Shown in pieces: positions 11,371 through 51,648 of a stretch of 64,000 nucleotides of DNA; position 1 is the first letter of the stretch, and every line of letters begins with the position of its first letter. A program made the position numbers and the translations under genes. Location of the stretch: NCBI GenBank assembly GCA_000091205.1, contig AP006490.2; one strand, written 5' to 3'. Under the pieces are notes generated by a model. It was not told the DNA's origin and ran no database searches. It saw only the letters and a program-made list of their open reading frames with translations. This DNA comes from Cyanidioschyzon merolae. Its lineage: Eukaryota.

Positions 11371-11562
11371 ATTGCTCGCTTATCGCGTGCGCTACGCTGT
11401 CGACGGACAACGTACCAGGTTTTTTCGTCGTTCCAAACAGGTTCTGGATCTCGATGTGGTAACGCAATATCTTTGCCAGAATAAATACAGGACGCGTGTC
11501 CACGCAGCGCCTCCAGCTAAACGAAAGCGAGTTCCGGGCCCAGGTGCGTACGCCGCAGACGG

Positions 11563-11722
11563 ACCGGAATCCTTCTACGAGGACTCGAAACTCGCAAGTG
11601 ACTGTTTGATGGAGCTTCTCGGTGATCCGCGGCGGAGTGAGCTCTTCATCGCCTTGACTGCAGCAGCGGAAAGCGGATGGGACTTTGTCGCGCTGGCTGC
11701 GCGATCGGCGAAGCCTGTGCTC
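11563..11722 (+). repeat. Dispersed duplicate (about 95% identity, 160 bp) of an internal trehalase coding segment (trehalase nt 17330-17491)
   Basis: Direct DNA comparison: accggaatccttctacgaggactcgaaact(c/t)gcaagtgactgtt(t/c)gatgga(g/a)cttctcggtgatccgcggcggagtgagctcttcatcgccttgactgcagcagcggaaagcggatgggactttt(c)gtcgcgctggctgcgcga(t/c)cggcgaagc(c/a)tgtgctc. It encodes the trehalase AESGWDF motif. It is not part of an intact gene here. Confidence 0.85.
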
Positions 11723-11819
11723 ACACACCAACAACGCCGCTCTAAAGTCGAACGACGTCGGGCGTGTACAGTAGTGGCAGCAACCGCGCCCTCGACAAGA
11801 CGTCTCCAACTGACGCGCA

Positions 11820-18332: not shown

Positions 18333-18974
18333 ACCGTGCGGGTCCTGATGCTGTCATGACCTCTGCGTTTACCTCAGCGTAGATTGGCGCTCGACGATAG
18401 ATTTTTGTTTATGAATGCATGTTTATTTATGTGTATGTGCTCCAAGTTTCCCGCGCTGTTCATTCGCGAGCCCGCGATAAACACAGCCTCCAACGAGCGA
18501 CAAGAATCTTGATTTTATTCGAGACGATTGGCGTATCGCATATTTGATCGATTTGAGGCACTTGAAGACTGCAGAAGTTTTCCATCAGCCGAATACATGC
18601 ATAAATAGATGTATTGTCTCAAGGGAAGGGCAGTATCCCTTTCTCAATGATCCGCAGCTGGCTAGCTCGCTTTTTCTGAACGAGGTACCCAAAATCAGTC
18701 ACCGAACAACGTATCACCGGGTCAGGCTCGAAGCGTCTACGCTGCGTCCGGCGTGAACGTGCCTAGACTTGCTCTGTCCCGGATGCTGGACCCTGATAGG
18801 CCGTTGAAAGCACTCGAACCGTGCATTCCGCCTCGGATACGCGTTCAACAACGGAGTCGTATGTCGTTTCATCAATCTGCCGTCAGCAAGAAGGCAGCGG
18901 CAGCTGCGCTCGTACAGACTCGGCATAGCGAGGTCGATCTCGCATCGAGTTCGCCCGAGTATTCACGATTCGCA

Positions 18975-21743
18975 TCAGTTGCTGTCGTGGACAGTTGCGA
19001 GCACACAATGTTCACCAGTCAGTCGGTAGAGGAGGCGAGCGCGCTCCTCATTGTCTTCGGTTCGCGCTTCCAAGACATATTCCCGCATGTGCGGGGTTTC
19101 CAGAACAGCCGCCTCATCGAGGTCAAAGATCGAGCGCGTCAAGTACTCCAGAAGTGCTGTTTGCACCGGTGCTGCTGTTGGCGAAGCATACGGCCCCGGA
19201 AGCGTCAGCTGCCCATGTTGAAGCAATTCATCTAAAAGCTCCATACGATCCTGGAAGACTCGTCGCAAAAGTTGCACGTGCACCCAAAGCGTCAGCAGTT
19301 GATCGATCTCGTCCATGCTGTGCTGCAGGTGCGCACCCAGAACACCAGTCTCTGGCACAGAGGACTGGAAAAGCGCAGCACACGCAGCCGCTGTGGACTC
19401 GAAACAGCGACGAAAGCCCGTTACATACTGGCGTTCGATGCTAGACTGGCAGCAGATCGCTTGCCAGAGCGCTCTCACACACTGCATAGCCCCGAACTCG
19501 AGCAGTCTCTGCCATTGCTGTCGACTTGGTTCCGAGTCATCCGGAAAGAAAGATGCCTCAGCTTTGGCAGTCGCGTTGCCCGTGGGTGTCCCATTGGCCC
19601 CTGGATTTGCGTCGTACAGGGATGCGCACCGGTGTGGATCGTTTTCAACAGAAAAGATGCCTTCCGTCGAGGTGTCATCCGCGGCAACCGGCATTTGCGC
19701 ATCAGAATCCACTTCAGCCTGGCCTAGCGCCTCAGGATCCGACTTTACAGCATGCTCGCTTGCCGCACCATGCAGTTGCTTTCGTGTGCCGGCCGTCTGC
19801 AGGTGGCCCGGTCTACTGGGTACAGGCGCTGGCTCAGGTGACGGGAGCGAAGCTGAAGCAACCCCTTGCCCAGGGCTGACGGAGCCCAAAGCGCGTCCCG
19901 GCACCCGTACTGTGTATGCCTGCGATCCGAATGCATCGGACGCAAACGCTACTGCCGTTTGCTCAAGAGCTACCGCACCGGCCTCTCCGCGAATTCCAGC
20001 GTTCAGCGCATACACAGGCGTAGCAGAGGGAGCCTGTGCTCCAGCGCTCTTTTCAGATGCGACGGCTCCTCGATTCCTGGCAGCTGGGCATGTGCTTTCC
20101 ACTGGAACCCGTTGAGATTCTACGCTAGCCGCTGCGGCGTCAAGAGGTGTCGCCTCCGGTGTTGATTTCTGCAGATTCGCACTCGCCAGTCTATTCAAGC
20201 TCTCTAGTGTCACACGAAGTTCTGCCGCAACCGTCCCGTCGTTCTCGCTGTGCAGCCCTTTTGGCCATGAATTTGCAATCAAGGCGTCGTCGACGCACGC
20301 TCTCAACGCTTCCAAGAGCGGACAAATCAGGTGCCTTGACGTGAACACCCTGCTGGGCTGCTCTGGATCCAGGGACTGCTCAGTATCACTGATCGATACG
20401 GAGCGGAGGATGCGAATCAGTTGCACAAGTCGTCTGACGAGTTGTCTCAACAGTCGCATCTGTGTCCAGTGTGGCACCGGCATTACTTTCCGTGGCATGC
20501 TGGACATGGGTTCGGCGTCCAGGCTTTCGCTCGGTAACCAGAGGATCCACTCTGGTGCATCCAGCAGATCCATGCTTTCGTAGGCAGCGAGCGACCTCAG
20601 TGGCCATCGCAGCATCAACGCAAGCCGCAGGGCATCCGCATCTACAAGAGGCGATGTGACTAAGCCCTCGGACTCGACCGCTTCGGGTTCCAGCACTACC
20701 TCATAGGTCAGGGCAATCTCAAGCCGCTCTTGTGTGATGCTCCTGTTCGTCTCCGTGGCGCCTGGCGAGAGCGAAGGTGTTACGATATGCTGGCGAAAGA
20801 ATGCCAACAAGGATTCCAGATCCTCGATATTCGCAGGAGGTGTAGATAGCACGCGCATTTCGTAATGCCGCAATGCAAACCCATCACCAATCCCTAGTCC
20901 GCGGTACTCGGTTGCAGCTTCCGTCATCGTAGCGCTTGTTTCAACGAAAACTGTCGTGGGCATCATTGTCATCGAGACGCTGGTGCAGTGCTTACGGTCC
21001 TGGGGCTCAGTCGACTCTACAGAGTGTGTGCTTCCGTTTCGCTTGTTGAGCGTCGTGCACTTCCTCCTGGGACCAGTCTCGACGTCTGAGGTACAGTCGG
21101 GTGTCATACACTGGCGCCCCGCTCCGCGAGACTGCCATAGAACGCACGCGCTTTCACCAGGCTGGTCTTGATCGGTCTGTAGACAGGTCGTGGCAACGAA
21201 GAAAAGTGCGCCAACTGCAGCTTGAACCCAGTCACGATATGACGATAGTGCTGGCGTCAAACGGAGTAGCCAGTACGCAGGAACGCCAAAGAGTCTCACG
21301 AGCCCCAGAGGTTGCGCCACCTGCCAGGTTTCATCGCATACGAGGAAGAGCTCTGCAGACACACGAGTGCTTGTCGATGCGTCTTCCCTGCAGGTCGTCC
21401 AAGGTGTCCAGGGTGTCCGGTCCAGTGCTGGTGGCAGTGCGACCGTCAACGACTGTCGTACGGCTCCGGGTACGGTATTACGAGTTGCCACCTGCGTAAC
21501 CAAGGCCTTTGCGGCTTCTTCTAAAGCGTACACGAGGTCCTCCCAGGGCGTGTTCCGACTGAAGTCTTGCGTGACGCTGGATTCTCTTGGTAATAGCAGG
21601 CGGAAGCCCGGGATACGCAGGTTTGGCCACCGGAAGTCTGCTGGCGTGCCACCGCTGGGCACTTGTTGCTCCTCAGCGTCGGAGCGGCCTGCCATAGGCA
21701 CCTGACAGCCTTGAGGCTGGGCCCGGAATGGACGCCTACGCAC
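18975..21743 (-). CDS. hypothetical protein, 922 aa, no recognised domain
   Basis: Very long uninterrupted ORF with coding-like composition and both acidic and Ser/Ala-rich stretches. Its length argues it is real. No family identified by eye. Confidence 0.55.
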   Translation of the reverse strand: MRRRPFRAQPQGCQVPMAGRSDAEEQQVPSGGTPADFRWPNLRIPGFRLLLPRESSVTQDFSRNTPWEDLVYALEEAAKALVTQVATRNTVPGAVRQSLTVALPPALDRTPWTPWTTCREDASTSTRVSAELFLVCDETWQVAQPLGLVRLFGVPAYWLLRLTPALSSYRDWVQAAVGALFFVATTCLQTDQDQPGESACVLWQSRGAGRQCMTPDCTSDVETGPRRKCTTLNKRNGSTHSVESTEPQDRKHCTSVSMTMMPTTVFVETSATMTEAATEYRGLGIGDGFALRHYEMRVLSTPPANIEDLESLLAFFRQHIVTPSLSPGATETNRSITQERLEIALTYEVVLEPEAVESEGLVTSPLVDADALRLALMLRWPLRSLAAYESMDLLDAPEWILWLPSESLDAEPMSSMPRKVMPVPHWTQMRLLRQLVRRLVQLIRILRSVSISDTEQSLDPEQPSRVFTSRHLICPLLEALRACVDDALIANSWPKGLHSENDGTVAAELRVTLESLNRLASANLQKSTPEATPLDAAAASVESQRVPVESTCPAARNRGAVASEKSAGAQAPSATPVYALNAGIRGEAGAVALEQTAVAFASDAFGSQAYTVRVPGRALGSVSPGQGVASASLPSPEPAPVPSRPGHLQTAGTRKQLHGAASEHAVKSDPEALGQAEVDSDAQMPVAADDTSTEGIFSVENDPHRCASLYDANPGANGTPTGNATAKAEASFFPDDSEPSRQQWQRLLEFGAMQCVRALWQAICCQSSIERQYVTGFRRCFESTAAACAALFQSSVPETGVLGAHLQHSMDEIDQLLTLWVHVQLLRRVFQDRMELLDELLQHGQLTLPGPYASPTAAPVQTALLEYLTRSIFDLDEAAVLETPHMREYVLEARTEDNEERARLLYRLTGEHCVLATVHDSN

Positions 21744-22231
21744 TCAAAAACCGGCTAGGTGCCGTCGAGTGCAAGCTCTGCCGCACCGTCCACCCCAGCG
21801 AGGCGAACTACCTCGTACACACTCGGGGGCGTCGTCACCGTCAGGCTGTGAAGCGTCGCGAAGAGCGCGACACCCTGCGACGACGCTTTCCCGAAACAGG
21901 AGTCGTCTCTGGGTCGGTTGTAAACACAAAACTCGAAAGCAGACGCTCGGAAGGAACCGAAGCAAGCCCGCATACACCAAAAGTCGAGTGCTGGCGTCTT
22001 CCGGGGAACGCGGGGTTTCGGATAGCCACAGAGCTGTCAGCAAGCGCGGACGTTGAGGTGCTGGTTACCCCGCAACCCAGACGTCTGGGTCAAGAGATCT
22101 GGCTGATTCCCGATGTCGCTTGTATGCGGCTTGAGCAGGGGAGTTTTGTGACACGCGTACGGACACGTAGGTTCCCGGTTTGCTCTGGTGCTGTGCGTTT
22201 CGAGGTGGATCTGTATGTGCGAAGAGACTAG
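21728..22231 (+). CDS. U1/matrin-type C2H2 zinc-finger protein with an SF3A2/Prp11-like N-terminus (167 aa)
   Basis: The N-terminus MDAYALKNRLGAVECKLCRTVHPSEANYLVHTRGRRHRQAVKRRE closely parallels the SF3A2 segment PYFMKNHLGSYECKLCLTLHNNEGSYLAHTQGKKHQ. The downstream part is divergent. Confidence 0.5.
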   Translation: MDAYALKNRLGAVECKLCRTVHPSEANYLVHTRGRRHRQAVKRREERDTLRRRFPETGVVSGSVVNTKLESRRSEGTEASPHTPKVECWRLPGNAGFRIATELSASADVEVLVTPQPRRLGQEIWLIPDVACMRLEQGSFVTRVRTRRFPVCSGAVRFEVDLYVRRD

Positions 22232-23294
22232 CGCGTGTTCCGTTCACTGCGCCTTGGGGTATGCATCGAGCGCATTCAGTATCGAAACGATGAGTTAAGC
22301 CAGCGAAAACGGCTTTTGTTTCGATGCGGAGGCATCTTACGTGCATACAACAGTGATTGCACCCAGGAGGGAATGAAGCATGGAGCGCTACAGCAGCAAC
22401 ATCTCCGATCATGCGACTGCTGTATGAGCTAGTTAGCGAAGGACGGACGCTCGCGTCTGCTGCACTGCTGTGGTTGTCGCTGACGTTGAGCCTTCAAAGG
22501 TGATGATGAGGCGGGAAGCGTTTCGGGTCCAGCGTTCGATAATGCGCTGGAGGTTGCGGGTACCTCGTCGCCTGTTTCCATGCTGTATGGAGTGGGCATC
22601 AGCTCAGAGGCTTCCAGTGGAGGCGCGTCATGGTTGCCTCTCCACTGCCACCTGTGGTTTTGTATGTATCGTAAGCATCGGCAACGAATGCAAACGAGTA
22701 CAACATGTCATAGAGTGTTTATGAGCATGCTCGCACCAAGAAGCAAGCAGGCCGTCCGACGCTGCGTTGCCTATAGCGATTGTCGGTGGCTGCGAACCAG
22801 TCCTCGCTGACGGATGCCTCGCGACTCTTGAATCCTGTTCTTCTACATCTCCGTTACAGAGCTGGCGTTTAGCTTGCCGAGTGCATATCCATTAGCACGT
22901 TTATCAGCTCCGTATCTCGAAAATGGAGAACGCAGTCATCTGGACTATGGACACCTGAGCGAAGGATACACAGCGGAACTCGGTACTGAGGAGAGCTCAG
23001 GCGCTTCAAAGGCTGCTGGTGACGATTGCCGCGCTCTGCAACCGAATCAAGGTTCGATTATCCCCGTTTGTCGTTCGTATCTGGAGGTATCCGGGTGAGC
23101 ACATTGAAAAGAGCGCAGCGCTTTGTAGATAAACACCTGCTATACCAGTTGCCAGGCGCGATGCTCCAGCGCGATCACTGCACATGTTTCGATGTGAAGG
23201 CGCACGAGGCTTTGATACCTGACCCAGCGATCTCGACCTGTGCACTACGTTCGAGATGCTAGCTTGCGCATTCCAGTGCATGCTTCAGCAAACC

Positions 23295-24245
23295 TCATAA
23301 TTTGGACGGTGCTAGCGAGACACCAGGTGGTAGCGCTCTGGGGTCCTTCGCGGTTGATGCCCACGGTTTGCGTGGAGGCCAGGCTCGCTCTGGCTCCACA
23401 TCTGGATCGCAGCGGTACTGGGAAAAGTCTCGGACACCGCGGGAGCGCAGGTAGTCTTCGTCGATGAGCGCACGACCGCTCAATGCGTTGCGCTCAGGGT
23501 CATGGAGAAGCATGTGGACGCAATCAGCGATAATGCTGGCTTTTCGCCATTGCGAGCGATCTCCGAGCTGGAAGTTCTTCGTCGCGAAAGACTCTACCAT
23601 CGTAGCTGGCCAAAGAGCCACCGAGGTGACGCCAGTGCCGGCAAGCTCGCCACCAAGCCCGTGAACCAGCATGGTCATTCCGAACTTGCTTATCAAATAC
23701 CCGGTCATTCCGGGAAGCGCGTCAAGCTCTACCGGCGGCGACATCGTTATAATGAGGCCGTTCTTTTGACGCACCATAGCGGGCAGAACTGCGCGGGCAC
23801 AGGCAAACGAGCCTCGGGCGTTGACACCATGGACGAGATCGAAGCGCTCGAGGGGCGTCTCGGCCACCGGTTTCCACCATAAAGCACCAGCGTTGCACAC
23901 CAGCACGTCGATTCGACCGAATCGCTGTAGCGTCTCGTGCACCATTCGCTCGATCCCTTGGTCGTCACGGACGTCAAGCGGGAACGGGAGAACCGCAGCA
24001 GCACCACGAGCCAGGCACTCGTCAGCGACGCTCTGCACTGTTCCAGGCAGGTTTGCACGAGACACCCGGCTCTTAGCCGCGAGTACGAGAACCATGCGGT
24101 CCCTCTCGGCAAGGGTCAAGGCGATAGCCCGACCTATCCCCCGGGATGCACCCGTTATGATAGCTACCGGCTGGCTCGAGCCGAACGATGCCTCTTTGGC
24201 TTGGAGCATCGCGCTGTTACGACTGTTGCGGGAGCTGTAAAACAA
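23295..24245 (-). CDS. Short-chain dehydrogenase/reductase, HSDL2-like, with a C-terminal SKL (peroxisomal PTS1)
   Basis: AIITGASRGIGRAIAL (TGxxxGxG), NAGALWW, and a catalytic YxxxK-like context (YLISKFGM). The ORF ends ...LAPSKL. Confidence 0.85.
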   Translation of the reverse strand: MFYSSRNSRNSAMLQAKEASFGSSQPVAIITGASRGIGRAIALTLAERDRMVLVLAAKSRVSRANLPGTVQSVADECLARGAAAVLPFPLDVRDDQGIERMVHETLQRFGRIDVLVCNAGALWWKPVAETPLERFDLVHGVNARGSFACARAVLPAMVRQKNGLIITMSPPVELDALPGMTGYLISKFGMTMLVHGLGGELAGTGVTSVALWPATMVESFATKNFQLGDRSQWRKASIIADCVHMLLHDPERNALSGRALIDEDYLRSRGVRDFSQYRCDPDVEPERAWPPRKPWASTAKDPRALPPGVSLAPSKL

Positions 24246-26554
24246 GGATTGTCGCCGACTTGCGTCTCCACTTCCGGAAACACACGAACGTCGTCCAGTC
24301 CCGACTTGGACGAAGCGCTCTTTCGAACCGAACGTGATACGTATGAAAGCGCTTTTGAACGGTATCCGGTGCCTGCACTTGCTTCAAGCCACGAACGGAA
24401 GCTGTTTTGGGATGCTTTGCACCCGTTCCGCCACGTCGGGAGATGTAGCTCGCCCAGCGCCACGCTTCTCGACGGGCTGCTTCCCACACGTGTACCCAGC
24501 TGACTGCGTTCGGTATGCTCCAGCATATCCTGGACAGTGGTGAAGCGGGTTCGCCAATGGACCCTGACGGTGAGGTGCGGAACAAGCGACACGCTCTCGG
24601 ATACCAGTGAGCGTCGTGCAGTGGGGAATCCCTGGTCATGGTAAACGATCCTCTATTCTCGGGAAAGATTCTAGCTGGTAGGCATTTAACCATGGCGCTT
24701 GCCATCGATGGGTGCAGTGAGAAAAACATCGAATCCTGCGAGTGAAGTCTTCTTTGCAGGCACGATACGCGTGTTCTGTGCTGAGATGCCCGCGTTTGCT
24801 GGTGCTATGTCCGGTGCTGGACTAGGATTCAACGCTTGGAAGCTCGTTTGGTGAATGAAACGCTCATTCTCGATAGTCAGACTGGAGCGTGATTCACGTG
24901 ACCCAGAGGTCTCCGAAGCACATGAGGGCTCGCTTCCCTGGGTATAGGCAGCGGTTGTATATCCCGGGCATTGCTGGTCAGATTCGTGGATCAATCATCA
25001 AAAGATATCTCGCCTTGACGCTATTTGGAAGCAGTGCTTCGCGCGGCTACCCGCACAGCATCGCGCCTGTGTTTTTGATCGACGGAACCCCCAGAGGAAC
25101 CGACGACGCGCTATTGTACGCGAAAGGTATCGACATAAGTGAAAACGCCCATCATGCCGCATCCGACCTCCAAGTTAAGCTAGTCACTGAACATGCTTCC
25201 CTTCGGAGTGCATGCCCAGTTCATATGTCACTCGGGGTGCTGTGTGCCTGCTGCTGTGCCCGGCAATGCACGGAGAGAAGACGCAGCGGCGGGTAGAATC
25301 GTGTGCATGAGCAATCTCGAAGAAACGAAATGCGCACTAGCAACTCGAGAACCTGGTGTTTGAATGGATATGGTGAGCGATGAAAGGGGAAAACATTCCC
25401 TGTATATTCGACCATTTACGTCTAAGAGGCAGGTCCTGCGAGCCGGATGAGTGTTCTGGGCCAGCGCTTTGTGTGCTTCTGCACTGGCGGGTGCTGAGCC
25501 AATACATGGCTGCTTGTCCGAAACGCATTTCATTCTGGGAATCGTAGCTGGTAAGCTGCGTAGGGGCGTCGCTATGGTCGCAGTGGACTCCTAGCACATC
25601 GCTTCGCGCCTCCACAGGCAGTGCTTCCGTATGCGCAGGATTCAGGCTCCCAGAATGATAATGCATCCCGATTTTGTGACTAGTGAAGCGTGCCTCGAGC
25701 CGACGCTCCCGAGAGTATTTCGAAGCCGTTTCGTCTCCGTACTGAATCCGCACCGGTTGTATGGGCGTTATTGCGGGTGCTCAAGACAGCCTCGGCAGTT
25801 TTTTGTCGCAGGAAATGACCAGAATCTCCGAGAACGAGTATAAATAATCTAACGTGGATGTAGCGTCAAGAATGATCTGCGCGTTCCTGGATGTCACTAT
25901 CCATCGCGGAATCTAGCATCCCTAGTCCATACAAGCATTCTGTCCAATAAACGATAATCTTCGATCAGCGCCGAGTACCCGCCTTGCGGAACCCGCAATA
26001 GCGCCTAATTCGCTGATGCAGGTGCATCATAGAGACAGGACGGCTTTGCCGTACCACAGAGGGCGTCGGCTCAAGCAATGCTTCACCTGAAACGGAGTCG
26101 GAGTACCTGATCATTCTGGGAGCCTCCAAATTGTACAGACAGACCGACTGCCTGCGGCAGCGCGAGGCGATGTATACTAGGAGAGCACCACGACCAGGAC
26201 GACGTCGAGACGGATTCTCCCCAATGCGAGCCCCAGAATATACTGCGTATCGGAGAGTCTGCTCAGATTTCACTACAACACCAGGCACTGGTGGCGGAGG
26301 CACATGAAGCACAAGTCTAGCAGAAACGTGCGGCTCGCGGCAACTTCCACCTAGACGGTAATCGTTCACCAATATGAAAACCTTTACCCCCTTTCAACGC
26401 TTATCATACAAGCCGAACGACATTGTTATCTCGTCACTAGTTAGCGCTTGCCTTCTCTTCTACCATGTATTCGAGCCTGCTTATCGATCCGGATGCTTCT
26501 GTGCTGTAGTAGCGCTGCATCCTTCGTCGCCGCTTCGCGGCGATCCTTCAAGCT

Positions 26555-28539: not shown

Positions 28540-28690
28540 TGTCGGCAAACGCTGTGGCGCCAGCGTAGCACGCGTGGTGACGAGAGCGAACCTAGTGGGG
28601 CAACCGCTCCTGATCGAGGTGTGCCAGGAGAAGCTGAAACCGATAGCATGCGGTCGGTCGAAAAACAAAAGGCTGGGAGGCGTCTCCATG
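28540..28690 (+). mobile_element. Solo fragment homologous to the 3' end / 3' noncoding block of the Fanzor-like element family
   Basis: ggggcaaccgctcctgatcgaggtgtgccaggagaagctgaaaccgatagcatgcggtcggtcgaaaaacaaaaggctgggaggcgtc aligns with the blocks at 34880-34976, 47590-47671 and revcomp 11820-11900. It ends in the shared GGGAGGCGTC. It lies in a convergent intergenic spacer. Confidence 0.5.
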
Positions 28691-29157
28691 TCGGTGCAGA
28701 GACGTGCACTCTATGGGTGTCACAGGGAGCGCATGCTGCTCGAAGGAGGCCGCTGTAGCGGAAAGCAACGCGTAACACCGGCAGTACGCGTGGTGCTTGA
28801 CGATGCAGGGATACACACACGGGGGCATGCTTGTGTCGAGGCCGCTTCGCATCCGAAAGCTAAGACAAAGACTGGTGCTGCGCTAGCGGACTAGGAAGAG
28901 AGAGACGGATTACCGCATCCGCGCGCTCCGAAAGGCAAACGTATTGCCGCAGAGACCTGCTGTCGTTCAAATCTCGCAAAGCAGGAAAGCCAGTATAGCG
29001 TATGGAAACAATGCTTGATCTGTGCGGTGAGTGTGCATCTCGACGCTGACCGCCGCAAAGGGGACTCGTGTACGACTCGTTGGGTGCAGCTGGCGCCGGC
29101 AACGGCATCACGCGACAGGTACCGTCACCAACACGGCCAAATCATTCGTCGAGCTGC

Positions 29158-32100
29158 TCAGCCGGGCTCAGATACGTTCGAGCGAAAGAATGCCCCCTTC
29201 GAGATCCAGGCTTTGACGCGTGCCCGCCGTCGCTCCCGGCACCGTCGGAGCAAATGACCCAACGCCTGCCCGTGTGCTATGCGGCTCGCTATACAGGCGA
29301 TATCCTCAAATGCAACGCATGCAGCGCAGGCGTCTGCATCGTTCTCTGGACTGGCGTGCCAAGTGGTGTAGGGCGTCGCGTCGACGACATGCGCATCCAG
29401 TGCGCTCTCGTAGCATCGATACTGGCAATGTTCAAAGTGAATGAGCGGATACACCGGGCTAATGCGTGCATCGGTGCCATTCGATGACCGCGAATCTAGT
29501 GCCAGACAACGAGGTGGATGCACTGCGTCCTCGTAGCGCAGCCTGATGACAAGGAGCGGTCCGTCCGGGTCGTCGGCAGCGTATGCGTACCGCTGCGCCT
29601 GGCGTATATCGCCGCCGCGCAGCGCACCCACGTACAGCAGGCGCAAGCCAGGTGCTGCGTCAAACGTATCGAACGGGGTTAGCGTTTCCAGCCCCGATAC
29701 CCGGATGCGTTGCCGAGGCCAGTGGACATATACGCGACGCGTGAACACACGAGCACCCAACTTGCCGTCAGTCTCGAGTGGAACGATATTCACACCGAAT
29801 TTGGCGGAGCCTAGTAGCCGCCACACCCCGGGCTGTGCAGATACCGGCACGACACAACAGAGACGCACGAGCGAGCCCTCGTATTTGGTTCGCAGGAGCT
29901 GTGCTAGGTCCAGTGGACAATCCCAAACCTCTACCTTGGCTAAATGTTTGCCCAGCGGGTCCGCCACGCCAAGCGTTAACAAGGAGCCTATTTTTGGCGG
30001 GAATTTGTCTACGTGTCCTGATGCGTGCACCGCATCCGTGCACGCATCGCTTTCGAGATGCTCAGGGTGCCCGCACGCAGACCAGGCGCCAGGCGTACGA
30101 GGCGCCGCATCTGGGCTCCACGAAAATATGGGTACAGGGCAGGCATGGAGTTGCCCGTGTTCAGCATCTGCGACGATCTGTGCGGTGTAGGTTGCGCTCA
30201 GAAGGTATCTTGGCTTTCCGGGGAGAGTTCCCGGCTGACGGGGTGAAACATAGGCCCCATTTTTGTCCAACTGTCGTTGTTGTTGGTGGTGGTGTAGCGT
30301 TTCCGCGACGAACCTTAGTGGATGGACTCGGTGCAGGACGACGTCCAGGGCGGGAACGGTGCCGCCCAAGGGATCGGTCTGTGGCAGGGTCACCGCCATC
30401 AATGCGGATTGCACACGACCTATTGCCTGATGAACGGAATCGCCGATACGTTTCATCGACCAGCGCTGCTTCTGGAACAGTGGCGCTGGATGGACGCTGT
30501 TCAGGGACAGGGTTAAAGAGATTCGCTCGATCTGTGCAGCCGCTGTACGGATGGAGCGCCTGCTGGCATGGTGCGGTGCCGCAGCGCTGCACTCTACCCG
30601 AGCCGCACCGATGTAAAGACAACCTGCCCTGGTCCATAGGCGATGAGGTGCAGAAACCGATCTGTAGCCAATCTGCGGTCGATATTGTAACGCTCGCTCC
30701 GTTGCTGCGAATACGCGCAGGTGATGCAGCCACGCTTCAACGGGCTGGGTACCTTTCGCAAAAACCAAGTAATGCCCGTCGCAAAGCAATAAGCATACAT
30801 GCTCAGTCTCGATGCTCGTTTCGCAATCGTAGCCTGGAACGAGGAGGAGTCTCATCGGGGGCAGATAACTAAAAGCGTCTGGAGCTCGAGCAATCGCTTC
30901 AAACATGGAACTAGAGCGTTGCTGTTCCATGCGACGATGGCAACGCCAGAAGCGCCCGATGAGTTGATACAGCACTTGCCATACGGTTAAGACGCGACCG
31001 AATAGTGCTTGCGGCACAGCGAGCTCTATGAGACTCATCTCGTAAATAATCAAGCACCAGTAACGACGAAACCAAGCAAGGGAACCTACTCGATTGACAA
31101 CCTGGGAGGCATTAACAGTCGGCTCGAAATCTTGCTGAGACACCAGCCAAAAGGTGTCCGTTGGATCCGGCTTTGGGTTTTCTTGAACGGTATCGTCAAC
31201 GCAGAAGAAACAGAAGAAATCCCACGCATCTAGGACTGCACCTTGGGCACGCAGTTTTGTAACAAGGCGCTCAGTGGCAGTGTCGTCGCGCCCAGTCGCA
31301 TGCAGCGACTCGAGTTTCGTGATCAGGGCATCCGCATCGTTGCGAGAGCACTTGAACCGGAAACGTATGCTTTCCCAGGGCGCAAACGCCGCACGAATCG
31401 CATGCACGGAAGGATGTTCCAGGTCGATATCACATGGAGGGCGCGGAAAACACTTTGGAACCAAAGCTGGCGACCAGTATCCCGTGCGGCGTGCCGCATC
31501 GCCGCGGAAGGCAGCATGTGCACCAGCCTTTGGGTCATGTTCAGGGCAGACAGGCAGTGACTGGATCTCTGGTGCATCCCCTGCTCCATGAGCATCGGTA
31601 CTTGTCTTGCTTCGATGGATGCTTGTCATTGGTGCCTCAGCCTTTGACGGTGGCGTGAAGCGTCGGGCCCGCGAACTGAGCGGTCTTGCAGGCGCTTCTA
31701 CCGAAGTCACGTCTGCAAACGGTGGTCGAGCGTGACAAACGGATATTCCATTGTCTTGATCGTTGATGTTTCCCGCCCGTTTCGAATTGTCCATGGAGCA
31801 CGGCGGCCTTTTTCGTGGAAGATTACTATTTGAAGCGGGCCAGATGCATCGCTTGCTGGGAGCTGCGTATGCATTGACGCACGAGCTCGGGCCCATATGC
31901 GCTACTTGTGGCTCATTCATTCCACAATCAATAGACATAGATGAAGCGTCTTGGTTGCGGAACTCGCATGGAAAAGCTCGCGAATTTGCAAACTCTTGCC
32001 GTATGTGACAATCCTCTATGGATTTGATCTCCGAAAACGGCGATGCATCACAAGCGACTGGTGGACGATTCTCTGCCTCCTCGCTAAAGAGTCGCGCGAC

Positions 32101-33144
32101 TCGGGCGAGAGAAGCGCTCGATGCGACTTGCAGCTGCTGACCGTGACCCGTTGAGAAACCAGTTGCAGCGGCTGTAGCTCGATGTGATGCAGCTCGGGCA
32201 TCCTTGTCTGCGCCACCTGGAGCGGGATCTTCATGAAAGAGTCGCGCGACTCGGGCGAGAGAAGCGCTCGATGCGACTTGCAGCTGCTGACCGTGACCCG
32301 TTGAGAAACCAGTTGCAGCGGCTGTAGCTCGATGTGATGCAGCTCGGGCATCCTTGTCTGCGCCACCTGGAGCGGGATCTTCATGAAAGAGTCGCGCGAC
32401 TCGGGCGAGAGAAGCGCTCGATGCGACTCGCAGCTGCTGACCGTGACCCGTTGAGAAACCAGTCCTCATTGCAGACTTTGCTTTGTCAAAGTTCATTGCC
32501 TCTGCCCGTGTCCCCATGTGCTGTAAATCACCGACACGTTCGACTCCGGTTGCTTCTGTTGATCGGGTAAACACGCGCAACAGTTTCTCATTAGCAGGGC
32601 ACGTACCCGTCGCTTTGTCATCGATGCGAGCGCGCCCTGGAGACGCGTTCGGTGCGTGAACTAGCGATAATGCTGCACAACCAGCACCATATCGTTCCTT
32701 ATCTCCTAAGGGTGTGTCAAAAATAGCACTAGTTTCTAGGAACCTGGTCGGTTTTCTACCAAACGCGACATCCGCTGTACTGCCTTCATTATCGGATACT
32801 TGCGACTTGAAGTCACAGTGGTTGGGTTCCACGTTCCAGCTGTGTATTCCTTCGTGTCGGAGATCAGCGTCGCTCCGACCGAGTTCCTGCGTTATGCTCG
32901 TCGGTGTGCAGGTATCTACGCGGTCGACGATAAGCGACTGGGGCGGGTTTTCCATAGGCGCCGACCCAGCCCCCGTTTGCGCCGCTGCGTGCGGGAAACG
33001 GCTATGTTCTCCCAAGGCGACAAGATAGCAAGCCAACAAACCACTATTCAGGGCACTTTCGCTCTTCTTGAGACGTTCCGCTCGAGTCTCACACCGCAGT
33101 CGAAGCAGACAACCGACGTTCTGCTGGCCTTCAGCGCGACACAC
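29158..33144 (-). CDS. BRCA2-like protein with three near-identical BRC repeats, 1328 aa
   Basis: TGFSTGHGQQLQVASSASLARVARLFHE occurs three times, with a degenerate fourth. It matches the BRC consensus F-x-T-A-S-G-K-x-i-x-v-S-x-x-s-L-x-k-a-x-x-l-F. About 1000 further residues could hold a DNA-binding domain. I could not verify the OB folds by eye. Confidence 0.55.
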   Translation of the reverse strand: MCRAEGQQNVGCLLRLRCETRAERLKKSESALNSGLLACYLVALGEHSRFPHAAAQTGAGSAPMENPPQSLIVDRVDTCTPTSITQELGRSDADLRHEGIHSWNVEPNHCDFKSQVSDNEGSTADVAFGRKPTRFLETSAIFDTPLGDKERYGAGCAALSLVHAPNASPGRARIDDKATGTCPANEKLLRVFTRSTEATGVERVGDLQHMGTRAEAMNFDKAKSAMRTGFSTGHGQQLRVASSASLARVARLFHEDPAPGGADKDARAASHRATAAATGFSTGHGQQLQVASSASLARVARLFHEDPAPGGADKDARAASHRATAAATGFSTGHGQQLQVASSASLARVARLFSEEAENRPPVACDASPFSEIKSIEDCHIRQEFANSRAFPCEFRNQDASSMSIDCGMNEPQVAHMGPSSCVNAYAAPSKRCIWPASNSNLPRKRPPCSMDNSKRAGNINDQDNGISVCHARPPFADVTSVEAPARPLSSRARRFTPPSKAEAPMTSIHRSKTSTDAHGAGDAPEIQSLPVCPEHDPKAGAHAAFRGDAARRTGYWSPALVPKCFPRPPCDIDLEHPSVHAIRAAFAPWESIRFRFKCSRNDADALITKLESLHATGRDDTATERLVTKLRAQGAVLDAWDFFCFFCVDDTVQENPKPDPTDTFWLVSQQDFEPTVNASQVVNRVGSLAWFRRYWCLIIYEMSLIELAVPQALFGRVLTVWQVLYQLIGRFWRCHRRMEQQRSSSMFEAIARAPDAFSYLPPMRLLLVPGYDCETSIETEHVCLLLCDGHYLVFAKGTQPVEAWLHHLRVFAATERALQYRPQIGYRSVSAPHRLWTRAGCLYIGAARVECSAAAPHHASRRSIRTAAAQIERISLTLSLNSVHPAPLFQKQRWSMKRIGDSVHQAIGRVQSALMAVTLPQTDPLGGTVPALDVVLHRVHPLRFVAETLHHHQQQRQLDKNGAYVSPRQPGTLPGKPRYLLSATYTAQIVADAEHGQLHACPVPIFSWSPDAAPRTPGAWSACGHPEHLESDACTDAVHASGHVDKFPPKIGSLLTLGVADPLGKHLAKVEVWDCPLDLAQLLRTKYEGSLVRLCCVVPVSAQPGVWRLLGSAKFGVNIVPLETDGKLGARVFTRRVYVHWPRQRIRVSGLETLTPFDTFDAAPGLRLLYVGALRGGDIRQAQRYAYAADDPDGPLLVIRLRYEDAVHPPRCLALDSRSSNGTDARISPVYPLIHFEHCQYRCYESALDAHVVDATPYTTWHASPENDADACAACVAFEDIACIASRIAHGQALGHLLRRCRERRRARVKAWISKGAFFRSNVSEPG
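32087..32462. repeat. Tandem repeat, 150-bp unit x2.5, coding the BRC repeats (near-identical at DNA level)
   Basis: Units start at about 32101, 32251 and 32401 and are almost identical (tcgggcgagagaagcgctcgatgcgacttgcagctgctgaccgtgacccgttgagaaacc...). The period of 150 is a multiple of 3 and in frame with the BRCA2-like ORF. Confidence 0.9.
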
Positions 33145-34210: not shown

Positions 34211-34460
34211 GTACGAAGCGTGTTTCACCAATGCGGGGGCGTGTCGGTCTCGCATGGAGCGCGAGCTGAAGTGCGACTGAGCTCCATGTTTTGACGAAAG
34301 ACCCAGACACGACCGCACGGACTTTATTGTGCATGAGACCCAAACTCACGGCTGTACCGACGTTAACCGCGTGTTCTTTGGAGAGTCACGTTGCACGGAG
34401 CGGAGATGCTGCATGGGCTAGCCAGCCGTCTTTATAGCCTTTTATTTCGGTTGTGTTTCA

Positions 34461-35052
34461 CACCCAGGTGCGAGCAATGAAATGCGATTTCGCGGTTCAT
34501 AGCAGGTACGTTCCAAGTGCGTTCTTTTTCAAGAATAAAAAATCCAAGGGAGAGGTATGCGCATGGAATCGGGGATCTTAGAGGCCTGTCAGCATCGGGT
34601 GACTGAAAAAAGACGAGGAAAAAATCCTCGTCTTGCCGCGCATTGCGCAAGGAAGAGCAAATACGGAAGAAGAAGAGTGGTGATAGTCGAGAAACGGAAT
34701 TCGCCCGACGCTACGTTGCCGAGACTCTAGTGGAAGACAAAGCACGAGTGCTAGCCATTTTCGCAATGGTGCGTTCCACCTGCGTCAATGCATGCAAGGA
34801 GTTCATCAATCGACACTTCAGTGGCACCATCAACATAAGACGATGTGTCGTGCTGAAGACGGGACACGAGAAGCTGATGTGATACAACTTCGTTGGACAG
34901 CCTCTCAGTCTCGAAGCATGCCTGGATAAACTGAAGCCGATAGCAGGCCGCTGGTCAAAATAGGCTGGGAGGCGTCACTGGATGGTTATCGGTTTACCGT
35001 CCATGGTCGTGGGTCAGTTTTTTTGTTTCATCGACATGTACATATAATCTGC
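34461..35052 (+). mobile_element. Internally deleted (non-autonomous) derivative of the Fanzor-like element: 5' end-like block, C-terminal RuvC-III fragment, conserved 3' noncoding block
   Basis: It aligns along its length with the copy at 47174-47745, with the 5' block and the last roughly 75 bp (up to the ATGTACATAT terminus) shared only between these two. The internal ORF 34643-34882 encodes ...RSTCVNACKEFINRHFSGTINIRRCVVL (compare EFVNRDFNATINIRRCAVL of the long copy). GGGAGGCGTC is at 34967-34976. Confidence 0.55.
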
Positions 35053-35518
35053 ATGCAGTATCTGCTGCACCAGACAGATCATCAAGCGAACAGTGGCAGA
35101 TAAATCACTGCTGGACACTCGTGCGAGATTTTGGGGAATATCGGCAACATGCACGTTGCCATGGAAAGGACCTCCCATCATCGGAACTGAAAGACATAGA
35201 AACGCGCCTCAGAAGAACCCTAGACTACCATTTCCGTCTCGGTTTGTAGCCAGACGAACGGTACTTGGTATCATCTCTTCACCGTTACGGAATGGCAATC
35301 CCTATCGCCCAAGCGCTATCCACAAATATGTGTCTCGATCAGCGCCACCGCATCCGCGTGGTTCTTTAGTTCGCTTCTGGTGCCGACTTCTGTCAGTGCG
35401 GCGCCCGAAGAGACTTGATGCATTGTCCACGACCTAAAGGCGTCCGAATCATCGTAGCGACTGACCCAGAATACGACGTCATCGATCTGAGCGTGCAACA
35501 TGTGGTGCAAAATTCGCA

Positions 35519-46538: not shown

Positions 46539-47173
46539 GTGCTGTGGCTGTCCTGCGCGTGTACTGGCTCTGGGTGCGTTTCTTCCGTGTTTCCGGGACA
46601 GGACGCCGTGGAAGATACATCCATGAACATTCGTTTGAGGCAATGCGCGAAGCAGACCGGTTCTTTCGCCTGCTATACAAGCTGCCTCGAACACAGATGC
46701 ATGGTATTGCTGGCAACGCAAATGCATTGCGAGAACGTTTGTATTCCGTGCTCGAGGATGGGCGAGATGTCCACGTTCACAGCAGTCCGGGTTGTTTCTG
46801 GTGCAGCTTTCCATGCGCACGCTTGTGCGGGACTCGAAACGTACCCTGTATTTTCTACATTATCCAAATAATTGTCAGCCTGCTCTGGTCTAGCTGGCAC
46901 GGAGACGTGTTCTGCTCTGCACTCGAGGCTGTTGCGATCATCTCCAATGAAATATTCGAGATCCTACGTGCTTGCTTCAAATGGCGCGCGGATAATGCAC
47001 TACGGAAAAAAAAGTCACGGTTTTATACCATGCGCATCGTGGTGTAAAAGCAAGTGCTTGGTGCACGTTTTTGCGCACACGCGTTTGCCGCTGGATAGTC
47101 ATAGGACAAGTGTGGGCGAGCCCCAGCGCATGCGATATTCCTCTCGTTATGATCCTGCACGTCGACGGTGCTT

Positions 47174-47745
47174 CACCTCTAGGTGCACGTCATCAAATGC
47201 GTTTTCGCGGTATATAGGAGATGCATTCGAAGTGCGTTCATTTGAACAAATAAAAAATCCAAGGGAAAGGTAAACGCATAAAAGTTAGGGAACCTGGAGG
47301 GCCGGTGTCGTTGGGTCCCACAAAAAACACGAATAAAATCCCCGTCTCGTGGACGATGGAGAGACGAAGAGCGGAGATAGGCGGGGAGAGGGCATTCGCC
47401 TGACGGGACGATGACGAGACTGTGGTGGCCTAGAGGGCACGAGCTCCAGCAATTCTTGTATTGATGAGTTCCGCCAGATGCAATAAAAGTACGGCGTTCG
47501 TGAACGGAGAATTCAACGCCTCCATCGATACAAGATGATGTGCTGTGCCGAAGACGAGACCCGGGGAGCTAACACGAGCTACCTTTATGGGGCAGCCTCT
47601 CAGGCTCGTACTCTGCCTGGATAAACGGAAACCAGGAGCAGTCGGCCGGTTAAAAAAGGCCGGGAGGCGTCTGTGCATGGGTATGTACTTACGATCCGTG
47701 GTCGTGGGACATTTTTTGTTTCATTGACATGTACATATTCTAAGA
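47174..47745 (+). mobile_element. Second non-autonomous / degenerate copy of the Fanzor-like element (5' block, degenerate RuvC-III region with a stop, 3' noncoding block)
   Basis: Shares cacc.c.aggtgc...aaatgcg.tttcgcgg...aataaaaaatccaaggga.aggta with the 34461 copy. 47497-47535 encodes FVNGEFNASIDTR*C, a decayed EFVNRDFNATINIRRC. GGGAGGCGTC is at 47662-47671. Terminus ...tggtcgtgggacattttttgtttcattgacatgtacatat. Confidence 0.5.
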
Positions 47746-50700
47746 ACTGTGAGTTCCGGAACACCTGTACTATCACACTCTTATGTTTTTGTTTGATTTT
47801 CTGCAGGTATGCAAAGAAAGGGTTTGTATCCCGTAAATTGGAGAAATGTTGCGTCAAATCCTGGTGCTGGCACTGCTTGCTTGGGAAGAGCAGCTCAAGT
47901 CGTAAATGCAAGTCCTTCTCCGGTGAGGAGGTGGATGAACCATCGTTCTTATTGCGTTTGCCCGAAACGTCTTGCACCCAAAACATAACTTCATCACGGC
48001 TTTTTTCACGATCTTCGTATCGTCAATCCACTCCACTCCATATGCTCTATTAGAGAGGCGATCAAGCAAGCCGTAGGATGCGAGAATTCCGCCTCATTGA
48101 CACCAACGGTCGTGAAGCGACATGGATGGACGAGGTACAAAGCGCGAGTATGCGCTAAAAAACGCCGAGCGCTCGACAACACACTCTCGATTTCGAAGTG
48201 AAACACAAACTCGGACTATAGAAGAGACTTTCGCTCATAGAGGAAGAAATGGTAGACCTGTATATAGGTTCTCAAAGAGTGAGGGTAAATCGGTGTTCGT
48301 AAAGAAGGGACAAGCGAGTATTCCGACAAAATCTGCGCTGAAGGCGATGCTACCTTGTGGTCGCCTAGGTCACCAGAACGGACGGGTTCGTCAGTATTTC
48401 ATCCTCCGTCAAAGCAAATTTCATGGATTCTCCATCTGACATTTTTCTGTCCCGGTCGTAGACGATGACGCTTTCCGTCACACAAAAAAGCAGTGACGGA
48501 GTACGCAGTTGAGATTGTCGTTGAGCTCGTGCTCGTGCCGGCCTAGGCTGCCTGGTTCAACCCAGTCGATGGCGTCTTATCTGATGTAAAACTCTGTATT
48601 TACGTTTACGGGCCCATAGACGGGTCGTTCGCATCAGCGACACCGTTCTCTGACAAACTGTTCCTCGACAAGTCGTTCTCTACTTTCATCGGCACTCCAC
48701 TAATGTGATGCTCCTCTGTTCTTGCGCTTGAGCGAGTGAACAGGTGTGCTACAGTTCGTGAGGATTCTCGCGGTGGAAAGGTGACGAAAAAGTGCTTAAA
48801 TGATGATCGATGCGCTCATGGAAAAGGCGAATTCGAGCCCCACAGTCCACCCGGTACGAGTGCAACACGTAAAAAAGTAGGTATATCGAGTATAGCGAGC
48901 ATATTCGCGCCGTCCAGTCTGATAAAGAACAAGGAGAAGGAACGCCAGACTAAGAGGAAGAAAATTTCCCCAGAAAGTCGACGAGGGACCATAACGTAAA
49001 ACCGTCGAAGAGGGACAATCTGCCTGAAACGATGATCAGGTGCTTCGCTTTGAACCACGCCGTCGGGAAGAATTTTCCGAAACGCAAGTTTCAGGAAATC
49101 GTTAGGTGTTGCATAGCTTCTTCCAAGAACCGGGTTTCGCTCACGTTGCCCTCGAGTTTCAAGCACTTGGTTACGCAAATGTTTGTACGGGTCCCAGACG
49201 CACTGCTGCTAGATATCCACATTCCTCTGGAATTTTTCGATCAAACCCGAGTACGACCATATACCTGATACTCAGGACAGAAGATGAAATGCGGCCAGAT
49301 CGTAGTATCCACGCTTTGCATACTCGCGTTCCAGAATGCCTTGATGCTTCGCCACTCCTAGGCACTGATCGGAGCATCCACAGCACAGGTACGAACCTGA
49401 GTCTAGCAATCTCAAGAACTGTGTGCGTGCCAATGCCGAGCGTTTCATGGGGCACCTCCTGTGGGCGTTGTGCGCTCACCGCACTGGTCCAGAAAAACGG
49501 GTACTTACGGTAGGGATTCTCGGGATACGCGTGCGAGAAAAAAACGAATCCTTGGCGGCGGAAGCGATCCAGGCGGTCAGGCGCTCGGACTCGATGTCGC
49601 ATTGATCGCGAGATTCGCTTCAGATCGCCCGAGCTCATTGCGTAGCTCTGGGCCTCAGACCGGAGCACATCGTATCCAAATGATGCTGGAAACGTGACCC
49701 ATGCAGCGCTTTCATCTTGCGCATCTATGTGTTCCAGAATAGAGCCCTCTAGCGCAAAGCGAATCGTCTTTACGAATACGTCCGCGATAGCCTCCCCGAC
49801 GATCTATCCAAAGGTGTCCCGACTGGTCTGATCGATGTCCATCATTTCCTAGAAGAAGCTTCTGTTCTGTAGAGGATTTCTGAATCAGTGAGCTACGGCT
49901 GGTCTCTGCGAGCGACTCTGAAGCAAGCGAACAACTTGGCGAAGAGCATTGGCAGAGCGCGTCCAAGAGCTCTCGTTTACGGGGAGGAAATGAGACGCAA
50001 TTTACAGTGACGATCGATATAGACGGCGTATCAAGCAGCATGAACTGGTGGAAACGTTTATCTGCGTCGATCAACGAGGCTCATTTCCAGTCTTTCTAGA
50101 CAGATGACGAGAATGATTCTATGGTGTGTATGGATGCAGTGCTGGAGGTTTCCAGGTCCATCGCAACCCCTCCAAGTCAAGAGGATAGAGTCAAAGATTC
50201 CAACGGGTAGCAGATGAAGCTGCTCAATTTTTCAAAATGCTCTGTATGCTAGGGAGTCGGACGTGATGGACACCAGCAGACACACCAGCAAATAGAATAA
50301 CGGCTGCAGGGCCCATGTCGAAGCTCCAACCACCATACCGAGTAGAGGCGCATCCTTGATACGCCTCGTTCAGAGCGTACATGAGCGTCCAAATGATGCA
50401 TGCGGACGACCATTCGCAGGTGTATGTGACACCGCGCTGGATCGCCGACAGTGTTGTTTTTTTTTTGCTGAAGCCAGCATCGTCCTTTGGTCAATTTTTT
50501 TCCAACGAATTCGAGTACGGAATACCCGATATGTCGCATGGTTTCATGGCGGCCAATGGCACTAAACGTGCCGTACACCACAAATACCTCATTCCTGCAC
50601 CTTCGACGAGCGTGTCCAACGAGCGCATCAATCGGATCTGTTGGATACCTATCGATGCATTCGGAATGGCGTACGCGTATCATGAGCACGGGCACACGCT

Positions 50701-51648
50701 GGACCCGGTACAGAGGGAGAAGCAAGTGGAATAGACGCATATGTACGAGGTGGTGTCCGGGAAGCGGACCGCCCTTCACCTGGCGAGGAAATCCATGGAA
50801 TGTGAGACTCGCTCTGGTTTGATGCCAGCAGCGGCTATCCGCGGAATCAGTCTCTGCACCGAGACTTGAACGCCTCGATCAACGTTCGGAAGTGTCTTGG
50901 GCTCCTCGACTTCGAGCGGTTTTGTCGAGCGAACATTCGACGGAATCCTTTCGTACTCAACAGGGGCTTGTGCTCCTATGCAGAAGCGTTGCGATTCGAG
51001 AAATCAGTGGCCGAGACAGAGGGCATCGGGTTCTCCTAAGCGCCACGGCACTGGCATGGTACGGCGCAGCAATCAACAAGTCCGAAACGCCGTCTCAGTT
51101 CACGGGGAACGCTTTTCGTGGGCTAAAATATCCGGGTTACGCCTTGCACTCCTAGATGCGGATCGTTACCATGACAGAAATTGCATCCAGAGGCGCGTAT
51201 GCCTCTGATATGACCGCCACGTCCTCGTCATGATACACGCTCGCGCAGACACTCGAGTCGACACTGCTTCACGCGGCCCTAGGATTGGCTTCCTTCTGCT
51301 TGACGTGATCAAGTGCGCGGGAGCAATTACATCCTGACGCCTTTTAACGATGAAAGAGTCGCACCATGCAGTGCGCAGTTGCTCCATGTTGTTCCTGGCA
51401 AGGGTACTCTCGAGTTCCCAGTGTCCATACAACGTCCAGTACAACTGCTGCAGCGAGCTCTGTGTGCTCGAAGCACTGTCGTGGGCACTTGCGACGTCTA
51501 CCTCGTTGGGCACGGCTCCACCGTACCCACACCGCACTACGAAACGCGTTTCATTTTTCCTCGGACACTGTCTTGACCAGTCGCTAGATCCACCTCTAAT
51601 CTTTACACTTGAAACCAGTCTTTAGTCCTGGCATGGAGCGACCCCACT

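Follow-up and report, generated by a model that had tools for sequence, protein, structure and literature searches.

Two short relatives of a Fanzor1-type transposon sharing one internal deletion in a Cyanidiophyceae-type red alga

A stretch of 64,000 nucleotides of contig AP006490.2, from a red alga of the Cyanidiophyceae type, was analysed over its full length (hereafter the window; positions are counted from its first letter). It contains two short repeats, copy A (approximately 34433-35047) and copy B (approximately 47148-47740), which are related to the Fanzor1 transposons. The two repeats are probably ancient, inert copies of one non-autonomous internal-deletion derivative, which belonged to an old Fanzor1 lineage resembling the CMe-1A family. 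In both copies, a single in-frame deletion of ~1.85 kb removed nearly all of the nuclease gene.

Architecture of copies A and B

The alignable part of the two copies comprises ~595 bp, with an identity of 67-70%. A BLASTN search of the window with positions 34401-35100 as the query recovered copy B at 47168-47738 (69.2% identity over 595 columns, E = 9e-67). The identity in the global alignment, with gaps included, was 66.7%, and the values for individual 40-column windows ranged from 30 to 88%. The repeat reported in the first-pass annotation is therefore real, but the 70-85% identity ascribed to it was too high. In the MAFFT alignment of A and B, similarity began and ceased at both ends; the left edges of the two copies coincided within ~20 bp, the right edges within ~4 bp. 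Homology to the family profile in nhmmer searches started at 34433 in A and at 47157 in B, which moves the starts proposed earlier by ~10-28 bp upstream. The 5' block and the 3' terminus quoted in the first-pass annotation were each found exactly in both copies. The former, AATAAAAAATCCAAGGGANAGGTA, occurs twice in the window (34534-34557 and 47249-47272), as does the latter, TTTTTGTTTCATNGACATGTACAT (35020-35043 and 47713-47736), and neither was matched in any of 100 shuffles. The 8-nt palindrome ATGTACAT is also present in A and B. The flanks of the copies, whose alignment had been named beforehand as the sign of a shared duplication, yielded only chance matches of 9-16 nt over 1 kb (E of at least 0.43). 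The description of two co-linear copies with unrelated flanks was thus confirmed.

The window was mapped by nhmmer with a nucleotide profile of 2668 positions, built from six full-length copies of the family. Both copies lie on the plus strand, and each was matched by two separate parts of the profile. In A, profile positions 166-349 corresponded to 34433-34620 (E = 8e-18) and positions 2302-2536 to 34739-34976 (E = 3e-18). In B, positions 175-450 corresponded to 47157-47426 (E = 5e-21) and positions 2295-2547 to 47433-47682 (E = 4e-28). Copy A begins with an untranslated block derived from the 5' leader (34433-34556), which can be aligned to the leaders of the six full-length members and includes the conserved AATAAAAAATCCAAGGGAGAGGTA. 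The block is followed by a relic ATG (34557-34559), aligned with the ATG of the full-length copies, and by a decayed N-terminal coding remnant (34557-34738). The deletion junction is located at approximately 34725-34738, and the peptide across it, encoded by 34706-34771, consists of RRYVAETLV joined to EDKARVLAIFAMV. The C-terminal coding remnant of A (34739-34976; profile 2302-2536) was also detected by tblastn, with 38% identity over 88 amino acids (aa) to the C-terminus of P0001, an intact homologue described below. It contains two in-frame stops, the RuvC-III motif EFINRHFSGTINIRRC (34799-34846) and the tail YNFVGQPLSLEACLDKLKPIAGRWSK (34883-34960). The copy closes with a sublineage-specific 3' tail (34977-35047) ending in GGTCGTGGGTCAGTTTTTTTGTTTCATCGACATGTACATAT, which is common to B and occurs in a diverged form in a further fragment, C. 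Homology between A and B stops ~4 nt or less past ACATAT.

Copy B is built in the same manner. The leader-derived block was delimited at 47148-47272 by nhmmer and the A-B alignment, and the start codon is lost (ATG to AAA). The N-terminal coding remnant together with the junction spans 47273-47432 and includes EPGGPVS at 47290-47310. At the junction (47427-47432), where the match jumps from profile position 450 to 2295, only 6 nt separate the two parts, and the peptide DDDETVVA*RARAPAILVLM crosses it in one frame. The C-terminal coding remnant (47433-47682; profile 2295-2547, confirmed by translation) carries a decayed counterpart of the RuvC-III motif, FVNGEFNASIDTR* (47497-47535), and the tail TFMGQPLRLVLCLDKRKPGAVGRLKKAGRRL (47581-47673). 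The 3' tail (47683-47740), recognised by an exact 24-mer match and the A-B alignment, ends in GGTCGTGGGACATTTTTTGTTTCATTGACATGTACATAT.

The region of A between its two profile-matched parts is co-linear with B, and in a three-way alignment the junctions of A and B agree within ~5 nt. The same ~1.85 kb is missing from both copies; the N-terminal ...YDEMVV is fused in frame to ...RAKVRGLLALV..., and the reading frame runs across the junction in each of them. This agreement favours a single ancestral derivative, shortened once and afterwards copied into another locus. The proposal that A and B are co-linear deletion derivatives of a Fanzor-type element was therefore upheld, with profile positions 166/175-450 joined to 2295/2302-2547 at a common junction. 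Each copy retains the leader, the first 45-60 codons, the last ~90 codons with the decayed RuvC-III motif, and a tail of ~65 bp. The start codon is intact in A (34557) and mutated in B; A carries a frameshift between the ATG and the junction, and stops are present in both copies. The first-pass annotation had assigned to the copies the last 25-40 codons of the gene and a 3' noncoding block. A C-terminal remnant was indeed found, but it comprises ~90 codons, and the block is part of the coding tail. The protein frame QPL..KL..GGR..GRRL is kept through this block in A, B, C and the full-length copy D, and the segment is translated in the homologues P0006, P0011 and P0016, so that it was ancestrally a coding C-terminal tail. 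A spliced retrocopy, with GT...AG at the deletion, was considered as a source of the short form and rejected; the junction can be placed only within ~6 nt, and a poly(A) tail is lacking.

Origin, age and spread of the deletion derivative

Besides A and B, the window contains the full-length copy D (11694-14338, minus strand) and two shorter members of the family. Fragment C (15147-15375, minus strand) is 5'-truncated and consists of the C-terminal tail and a 3' tail of the A/B type (full-length profile 2388-2539, E = 5e-15). Fragment E (28573-28740, plus strand) is a short 3' piece of the same old lineage group (profile 2433-2567, E = 2e-9). A profile of A, B, C and E gave E values of 8e-66 for C and 5e-38 for E, which are circular, as the profile was partly built from these fragments. 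Over the shared 3' region, A and B are each other's closest relatives (70%). Either of them is 64-72% identical to C or E (64-66% for C, 66-72% for E) and 56-64% identical to the copies of the D type, which are 79-87% identical among themselves. The position of A and B nearer to C and E than to the D-type copies indicates descent from an older sublineage and not from copy D. Their earlier description as derivatives of the Fanzor-like element present in the window was accordingly abandoned. An old full-length lineage from a related locus, L020, was rejected as the direct parent, since it is closest to E (75%, versus 63-65% to A and B); L020 was the nearest full-length copy, and none of the A/B sublineage was recovered among the related loci. 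The divergence of ~30% between A and B, the stops in both copies and the frameshift in A, together with the lost start codon of B, contradict the recent activity that had been suggested for the family on the basis of these copies. Several Fanzor1 sublineages of different ages thus coexist in one compact genome.

The 3' region of the family (profile ~2433-2536) is present in four of the five family pieces of the window, and 5' parts occur in A, B and D only. Such a surplus of 3' ends is reminiscent of the 5' truncation described for other Fanzor1 families (PMC3627910). A third Fanzor-like relic, far more diverged, is located 1.3 kb downstream of B (49055-50922, plus strand). It is 25-31% identical to P0001 by tblastn, carries IDAFGMAYAYHEHGHTL and NRDLNASINVRKC, and has no counterpart in the syntenic spacer of the related species. 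A fragment near 6746-7895 (plus strand) is akin to this relic, with 68% identity between 48469-48634 and 6746-6909.

The loci of A and B were compared with the syntenic loci L013/L016 and L014/L018 (Cyanidiococcus yangmingshanensis, GCA_026122185.1), representing two related Cyanidiophyceae. The gene order of the window (COQ7, Raptor, a ~720-aa gene, thioesterase, FKBP, IspD, Indigoidine_A/PfkB, Rpb2) is that of C. yangmingshanensis. Copy A lies downstream of COQ7 and copy B downstream of the thioesterase gene. The spacer between COQ7 and Raptor measures 3.1 kb in the window versus 0.9-2.0 kb in the relatives, and that between the thioesterase and FKBP genes 5.1 kb versus 1.1-1.7 kb. Neither nhmmer nor tblastn detected family matches in the syntenic spacers of the two related species, whose intergenic DNA is too diverged for an empty-site alignment at the level of single bases. 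The short, match-free spacers indicate that both insertions are lineage-specific, in agreement with the earlier view of A and B as independent loci, and they date the insertions after the split from Cyanidiococcus and another relative.

The most probable history of the copies would comprise a single deletion event that gave rise to a gene-less derivative, followed by the copying of this derivative to a second site in trans by the mobilisation machinery of the parent family. Both copies would then have decayed neutrally, reaching the present identity of 67-70% through stops, indels and the loss of the start codon in B. While young, the derivative could have supplied a guide to the Fanzor protein produced from full-length copies. 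Today, A and B are most likely non-functional relics.

Several observations weigh against this history. The conservation of the terminal blocks is indistinguishable from a uniform scatter of mismatches; the apparent islands of A-B conservation were not significant in permutation tests (p = 0.059 for the best 40-column window and p = 0.13 for the longest exact run). A and B also differ from the full-length copies in their outer edges. No transposase, terminal inverted repeat (TIR) or target-site duplication (TSD) was identified for A and B, and a conserved RNA structure gained no comparative support from the folds, the named stem, the z-score or Rfam. Finally, the deletion is carried by two copies only, so that mobilisation as a unit rests on one duplication event. 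A scan of JGI metagenomes with the 24-nt terminus returned five contigs and no further copies; the contigs were all 99% identical to locus A or B and hence derive from the same organism. No short copies beyond A and B were found in ~230 kb of related loci.

At the 5' side, the homology of A and B starts at profile position ~166-175, which is ~130 bp inside the boundary of the D-type copies, a boundary that is itself fuzzy, with more upstream sequence shared by the copies L007 and L009b. At the 3' side, the D-type counterpart of the terminus CAT(C/T)GACATGTACAT is a strongly conserved motif, CCACTACTGTACAC. The 3' tail of A and B is only distantly alignable to that of the D-type copies, which share ~50 bp more past CCACTACTGTACAC (window 11722-11775, minus strand). 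The claim that both ends of the element are shared was therefore not sustained. The additional ~50 bp were seen in all D-type copies (e.g., 12380-12430 of L001, and also L007, L008 and L009); either the D-type element is longer than 2.7 kb, or the D-type copies are inserted in a repeated target, a situation to be compared with TE-N2_CMe, the short companion of CMe-1A. A search for TIRs at the ends of A and B revealed none common to both copies. The TAT found at both edges is parent-homologous sequence (TATAG, profile 166), and the left edge can be placed only within ~20 bp. A 12-nt inverted pair, AGATGCTGCATG and CATGCAGTATCT (92% complementary), brackets A just outside its edges (34404-34415 and 35052-35063); it has no counterpart at B and is probably due to chance. 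The Pfam analysis of 30 large open reading frames (ORFs) of the window showed no transposase among the best 25 of 44 families, all of which were housekeeping. The copies fit the definition of miniature inverted-repeat transposable elements (MITEs), to which they had been likened, only loosely. They agree with it in being small (570-615 bp) and in having no ORF, but no TIRs are common to them and their number, two in the window, is low.

The lack of TIRs, of an identified transposase and of a TSD call would also be expected if the second copy had arisen by DNA repair. A fragment of the deleted element would then have entered a double-strand break as filler DNA or by ectopic gene conversion, and the break might even have been made by the Fanzor nuclease. 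The mismatch between the outer edges of A and B and the full-length termini is in line with such an origin, as are the two bare 3' fragments, C and E, which lack 5' ends in a pattern typical of capture or truncation. However, edges that coincide as closely as those of A and B are easier to reconcile with a defined unit than with filler taken up at random. In addition, the family as a whole, with the ~150 copies of CMe-1A among its members, spreads without recognisable TIRs or TSDs (PMC3627910), so their absence is not specific against transposition. An origin by repair is thus considered unlikely, and copying of the derivative in trans is preferred.

Fanzor guide RNAs have been mapped to the region between the 3' end of the ORF and the right end of the element (PMC10530073), and in bacteria the PATE elements have retained omega RNAs which serve in trans (Meers et al. 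preprint, PMC10055086). By its position, the segment retained in A and B would correspond to the guide-RNA region. It is therefore conceivable, although quite improbable, that the copies are, or recently were, functional guide-only modules, in which a Fanzor guide RNA (fRNA) made from the leader and the 3' segment directs a Fanzor protein from full-length copies, acting in trans, to cut empty alleles of the insertion sites of these modules. Their operation as PATE-like satellites, which would have kept the promoter/leader and the guide scaffold of the Fanzor element, use their own downstream flank as a guide and be restored by homologous repair after the cut, is rated just as low. The retained 3' segment occupies the place of the Fanzor/TnpB scaffold (PMC10530073; PMC10055086). 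Among the full-length copies, the block that follows the "FIG" residues is less diverged (0.15-0.21) than the leader (~0.25) or the 3' tail (~0.30). Folding of the 3' blocks is slightly more favourable in A and B than in shuffled sequences (single-sequence z = -2.0). Nevertheless, the mismatches between A and B are compatible with uniform decay, the two copies adopt differing local hairpins, and no covariation was detected. RNAalifold gave no comparative support with either three or ten copies, and the ten-copy consensus fold reached only -4.3 kcal/mol. The hand-named stem GCCUCUCAG/CUGGGAGGC was paired in 70% of cells versus 69% in shuffles, and no Rfam match was obtained. The conserved segment extends beyond some stop codons in the family, and it also keeps the protein frame, so that its conservation is accounted for by coding constraint. 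Copy D, the full-length member in the same window, is a pseudogene itself.

Two full-length insertions that underwent parallel, independent deletions, the short form never having been mobile, represent a very unlikely origin. The variable ~75-bp tandem repeats in the middle of the ORF could promote deletions, but the junctions of A and B agree within ~5 nt and lie far outside these repeats (profile positions 450 and 2295), and the copies are mutual closest relatives on both sides of the junction. Co-option by the host, with A and B serving as 3' regulatory modules (terminator, polyadenylation signal or 3' untranslated region) of the upstream genes, is highly improbable. Both copies are located 120-240 bp past a plus-strand ORF in the same orientation, and AATAAA is found inside the most conserved 5' block. 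The orthologous genes of the two related species, however, lack the element, no block is conserved beyond chance, and in a compact genome insertions are tolerated only in intergenic spacers. A local segmental duplication, for which nothing speaks beyond the presence of two same-strand copies 12.7 kb apart, is scarcely credible, as it is refuted by the unrelated flanks, and the genes that surround and separate the copies are single-copy and keep the synteny of the related species.

The parent Fanzor1-like family and neighbouring features

Copy D, which was mapped to profile positions 15-2662, is a full-length Fanzor1 pseudogene of the younger sublineage. It contains in-frame stops and frameshifts, and the RuvC motifs GADPENT, IDEFRTS and NRDFNATINI are still visible in it. 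A search with the reconstructed D protein identified ~40 proteins, nearly all from JGI metagenomes, the closest of which are 60-79% identical; among them, P0001 is an intact ORF of 752 aa. At the nucleotide level, D is 80-86% identical to full-length copies in the loci L001 (9654-12464), L007 (8982-11699), L008 (1-2563) and L009. The two copies of L009 (5702-8266 on the minus strand and 8900-11470 on the plus strand) are arranged head to head, ~630 bp apart, and the same arrangement was observed in L010, which derives from a second sample.

The RuvC motifs GADPGNT, VDEFRTS and NRDFNAAINI are present in P0001, and they occur in its homologues and, decayed, in D. D484, E656 and D725 are invariant in an eight-sequence alignment, and the motifs follow the RuvC order D ... 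E ... RD. The published Fanzor motif is D-X-[TS][TS]-X-X-[zinc finger]-X-RD (Bao and Jurka, PMC3627910). In the present family, the zinc-finger region between RuvC-II and RuvC-III reads TSYTHHELGC...EKC, with two His and two Cys, and not CxxC...CxxC; its only invariant Cys in the eight-sequence alignment is C668. In a Foldseek comparison of the P0001 model with the PDB, the top seven matches were all Fanzor1 proteins (SpuFz, GtFz, PpFz; E = 2e-7 to 1.5e-4), followed by Cas12 variants. The AlphaFold2 model had a mean predicted local distance difference test (pLDDT) score of 43.8, with 55-75 in the RuvC region only, and was used solely for the Foldseek ranking. By its motifs and predicted fold, the parent protein is Fanzor1-like.

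Sequence searches gave little beyond this. Pfam returned no match for the ORF pieces of D or for P0001, and the distant homologue P0040 matched Cas12f1-like_TNB with 23.4 bits, under the cutoff of 26.3. No meaningful match in the PDB was obtained by phmmer or hmmsearch with the reconstructed D protein and the eight-sequence profile. The only precomputed label of a family protein was DUF8286, which was weak. The divergence of the six full-length copies in the C-terminal half amounted to 0.13/0.09/0.24 at the three codon positions, and this bias towards the third position indicates that purifying selection acted on the ORF during the spread of the family.

Tandem repeats of ~75 bp (25 aa), of the type ATQKVQDNDLVVDA.KHE..., are found in the middle of the ORF (window 12700-12860, minus strand). 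Their number varies among family members, as was seen when P0006 was compared with P0008. In L012, an ORF for a DDE_3 (Tc1/mariner-type) transposase (404-1024, plus strand) lies ~300 bp upstream of P0039, a Fanzor homologue with 37% identity; this neighbour may hint at the transposon superfamily to which the distant relatives belong. Another relative of the family, with 36% identity over residues 78-747, is encoded at 360-2000 of L019 (IMG/VR UViG_3300028372_000028), a 33.5-kb contig classed as viral.

The window has a G+C content of 56%, and both of its strands carry long ORFs without interruption. An exact look-up of its COQ7 product gave no record; Logan metagenome proteins are 99% identical to it, and the best named match is from Cyanidium caldarium (60%). 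For the thioesterase, the best named match is from C. yangmingshanensis (61%). Together with the gene order, these matches place the host probably within or near the Cyanidiophyceae. The CRT-like transporter and CIA30/NAD-binding genes (11371-26554) are 15 kb apart in the window versus ~2 kb in L013, and the additional stretch is occupied by copy D, fragment C and several other large ORFs. An ORF of 1328 aa with no identified orthologue (29158-33144, minus strand) contains near-perfect tandem repeats of ~150 bp (32086-32463), which encode GFSTGHGQQLQVASSASLARVARLFHEDPAPGGADKDARAASHRATAAAT.

Comparison with known systems

The main value of the present analysis is a better annotation of Fanzor1 elements in Cyanidiophyceae-like algae. 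Copies A and B cleanly exemplify a deletion derivative that occurs at two loci with one common in-frame junction, and as their retained segment coincides with the place of the guide RNA, the relics could help to define how far the guide scaffold of the family reaches and where its right end truly lies. If the PATE-like interpretation were true, they would represent "hitch-hiking guides" in a eukaryotic genome. On the present evidence, A and B are an ordinary kind of transposon relic and require no new mechanism.

The repeats are derived from a Fanzor1 transposon family of a type already described in a related red alga. The published CMe-1A family of Cyanidioschyzon merolae comprises ~150 copies of ~3 kb that are ~80% identical to the consensus, without TIRs, with undetermined TSDs and with some intact ORFs (PMC3627910). 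According to the published description, the family studied here resembles it in the Cyanidiophyceae-type red-algal host, in its length of ~2.7-3 kb with a single Fanzor1 ORF, in the lack of TIRs, in the identity of ~80% between copies and in the presence of some intact ORFs (P0001, 752 aa). The occurrence of short gene-less relatives beside full-length elements is a further common trait. However, TE-N2_CMe equals the 5' 635 bp of CMe-1A (Bao and Jurka 2013, PMC3627910) and thus represents the 5' part only, whereas in A and B a 5' part is joined to a 3' part through an internal deletion.

More broadly, A and B are similar to Ds elements derived from Ac, and to MITEs, in that the coding region is deleted, the regions near the ends are kept and copying depends, in A and B presumably, on functions provided in trans. 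They differ from these elements in having no TIRs or detectable TSD, in their number of only two copies and in their divergence of ~30%, which makes them very old. As in the PATE derivatives of IS200/IS605, which lack tnpA and tnpB (PMC10055086), the copies are gene-less and keep a segment at the place of the TnpB-family guide scaffold. Unlike PATEs, they are eukaryotic, no subterminal hairpins of the left or right end were recognised in them, and the RNA aspect is suggested by position. Among solved structures, the model of the parent protein is matched best by the Fanzor1 nucleases SpuFz (8GKH), GtFz and PpFz, which show the same RuvC D/E/D order. The parent protein differs from them in its sequence, with only 11-20% identity, and in the apparent replacement of the C4 zinc finger by HH..C..C, and A and B themselves keep only the last of the RuvC motifs.

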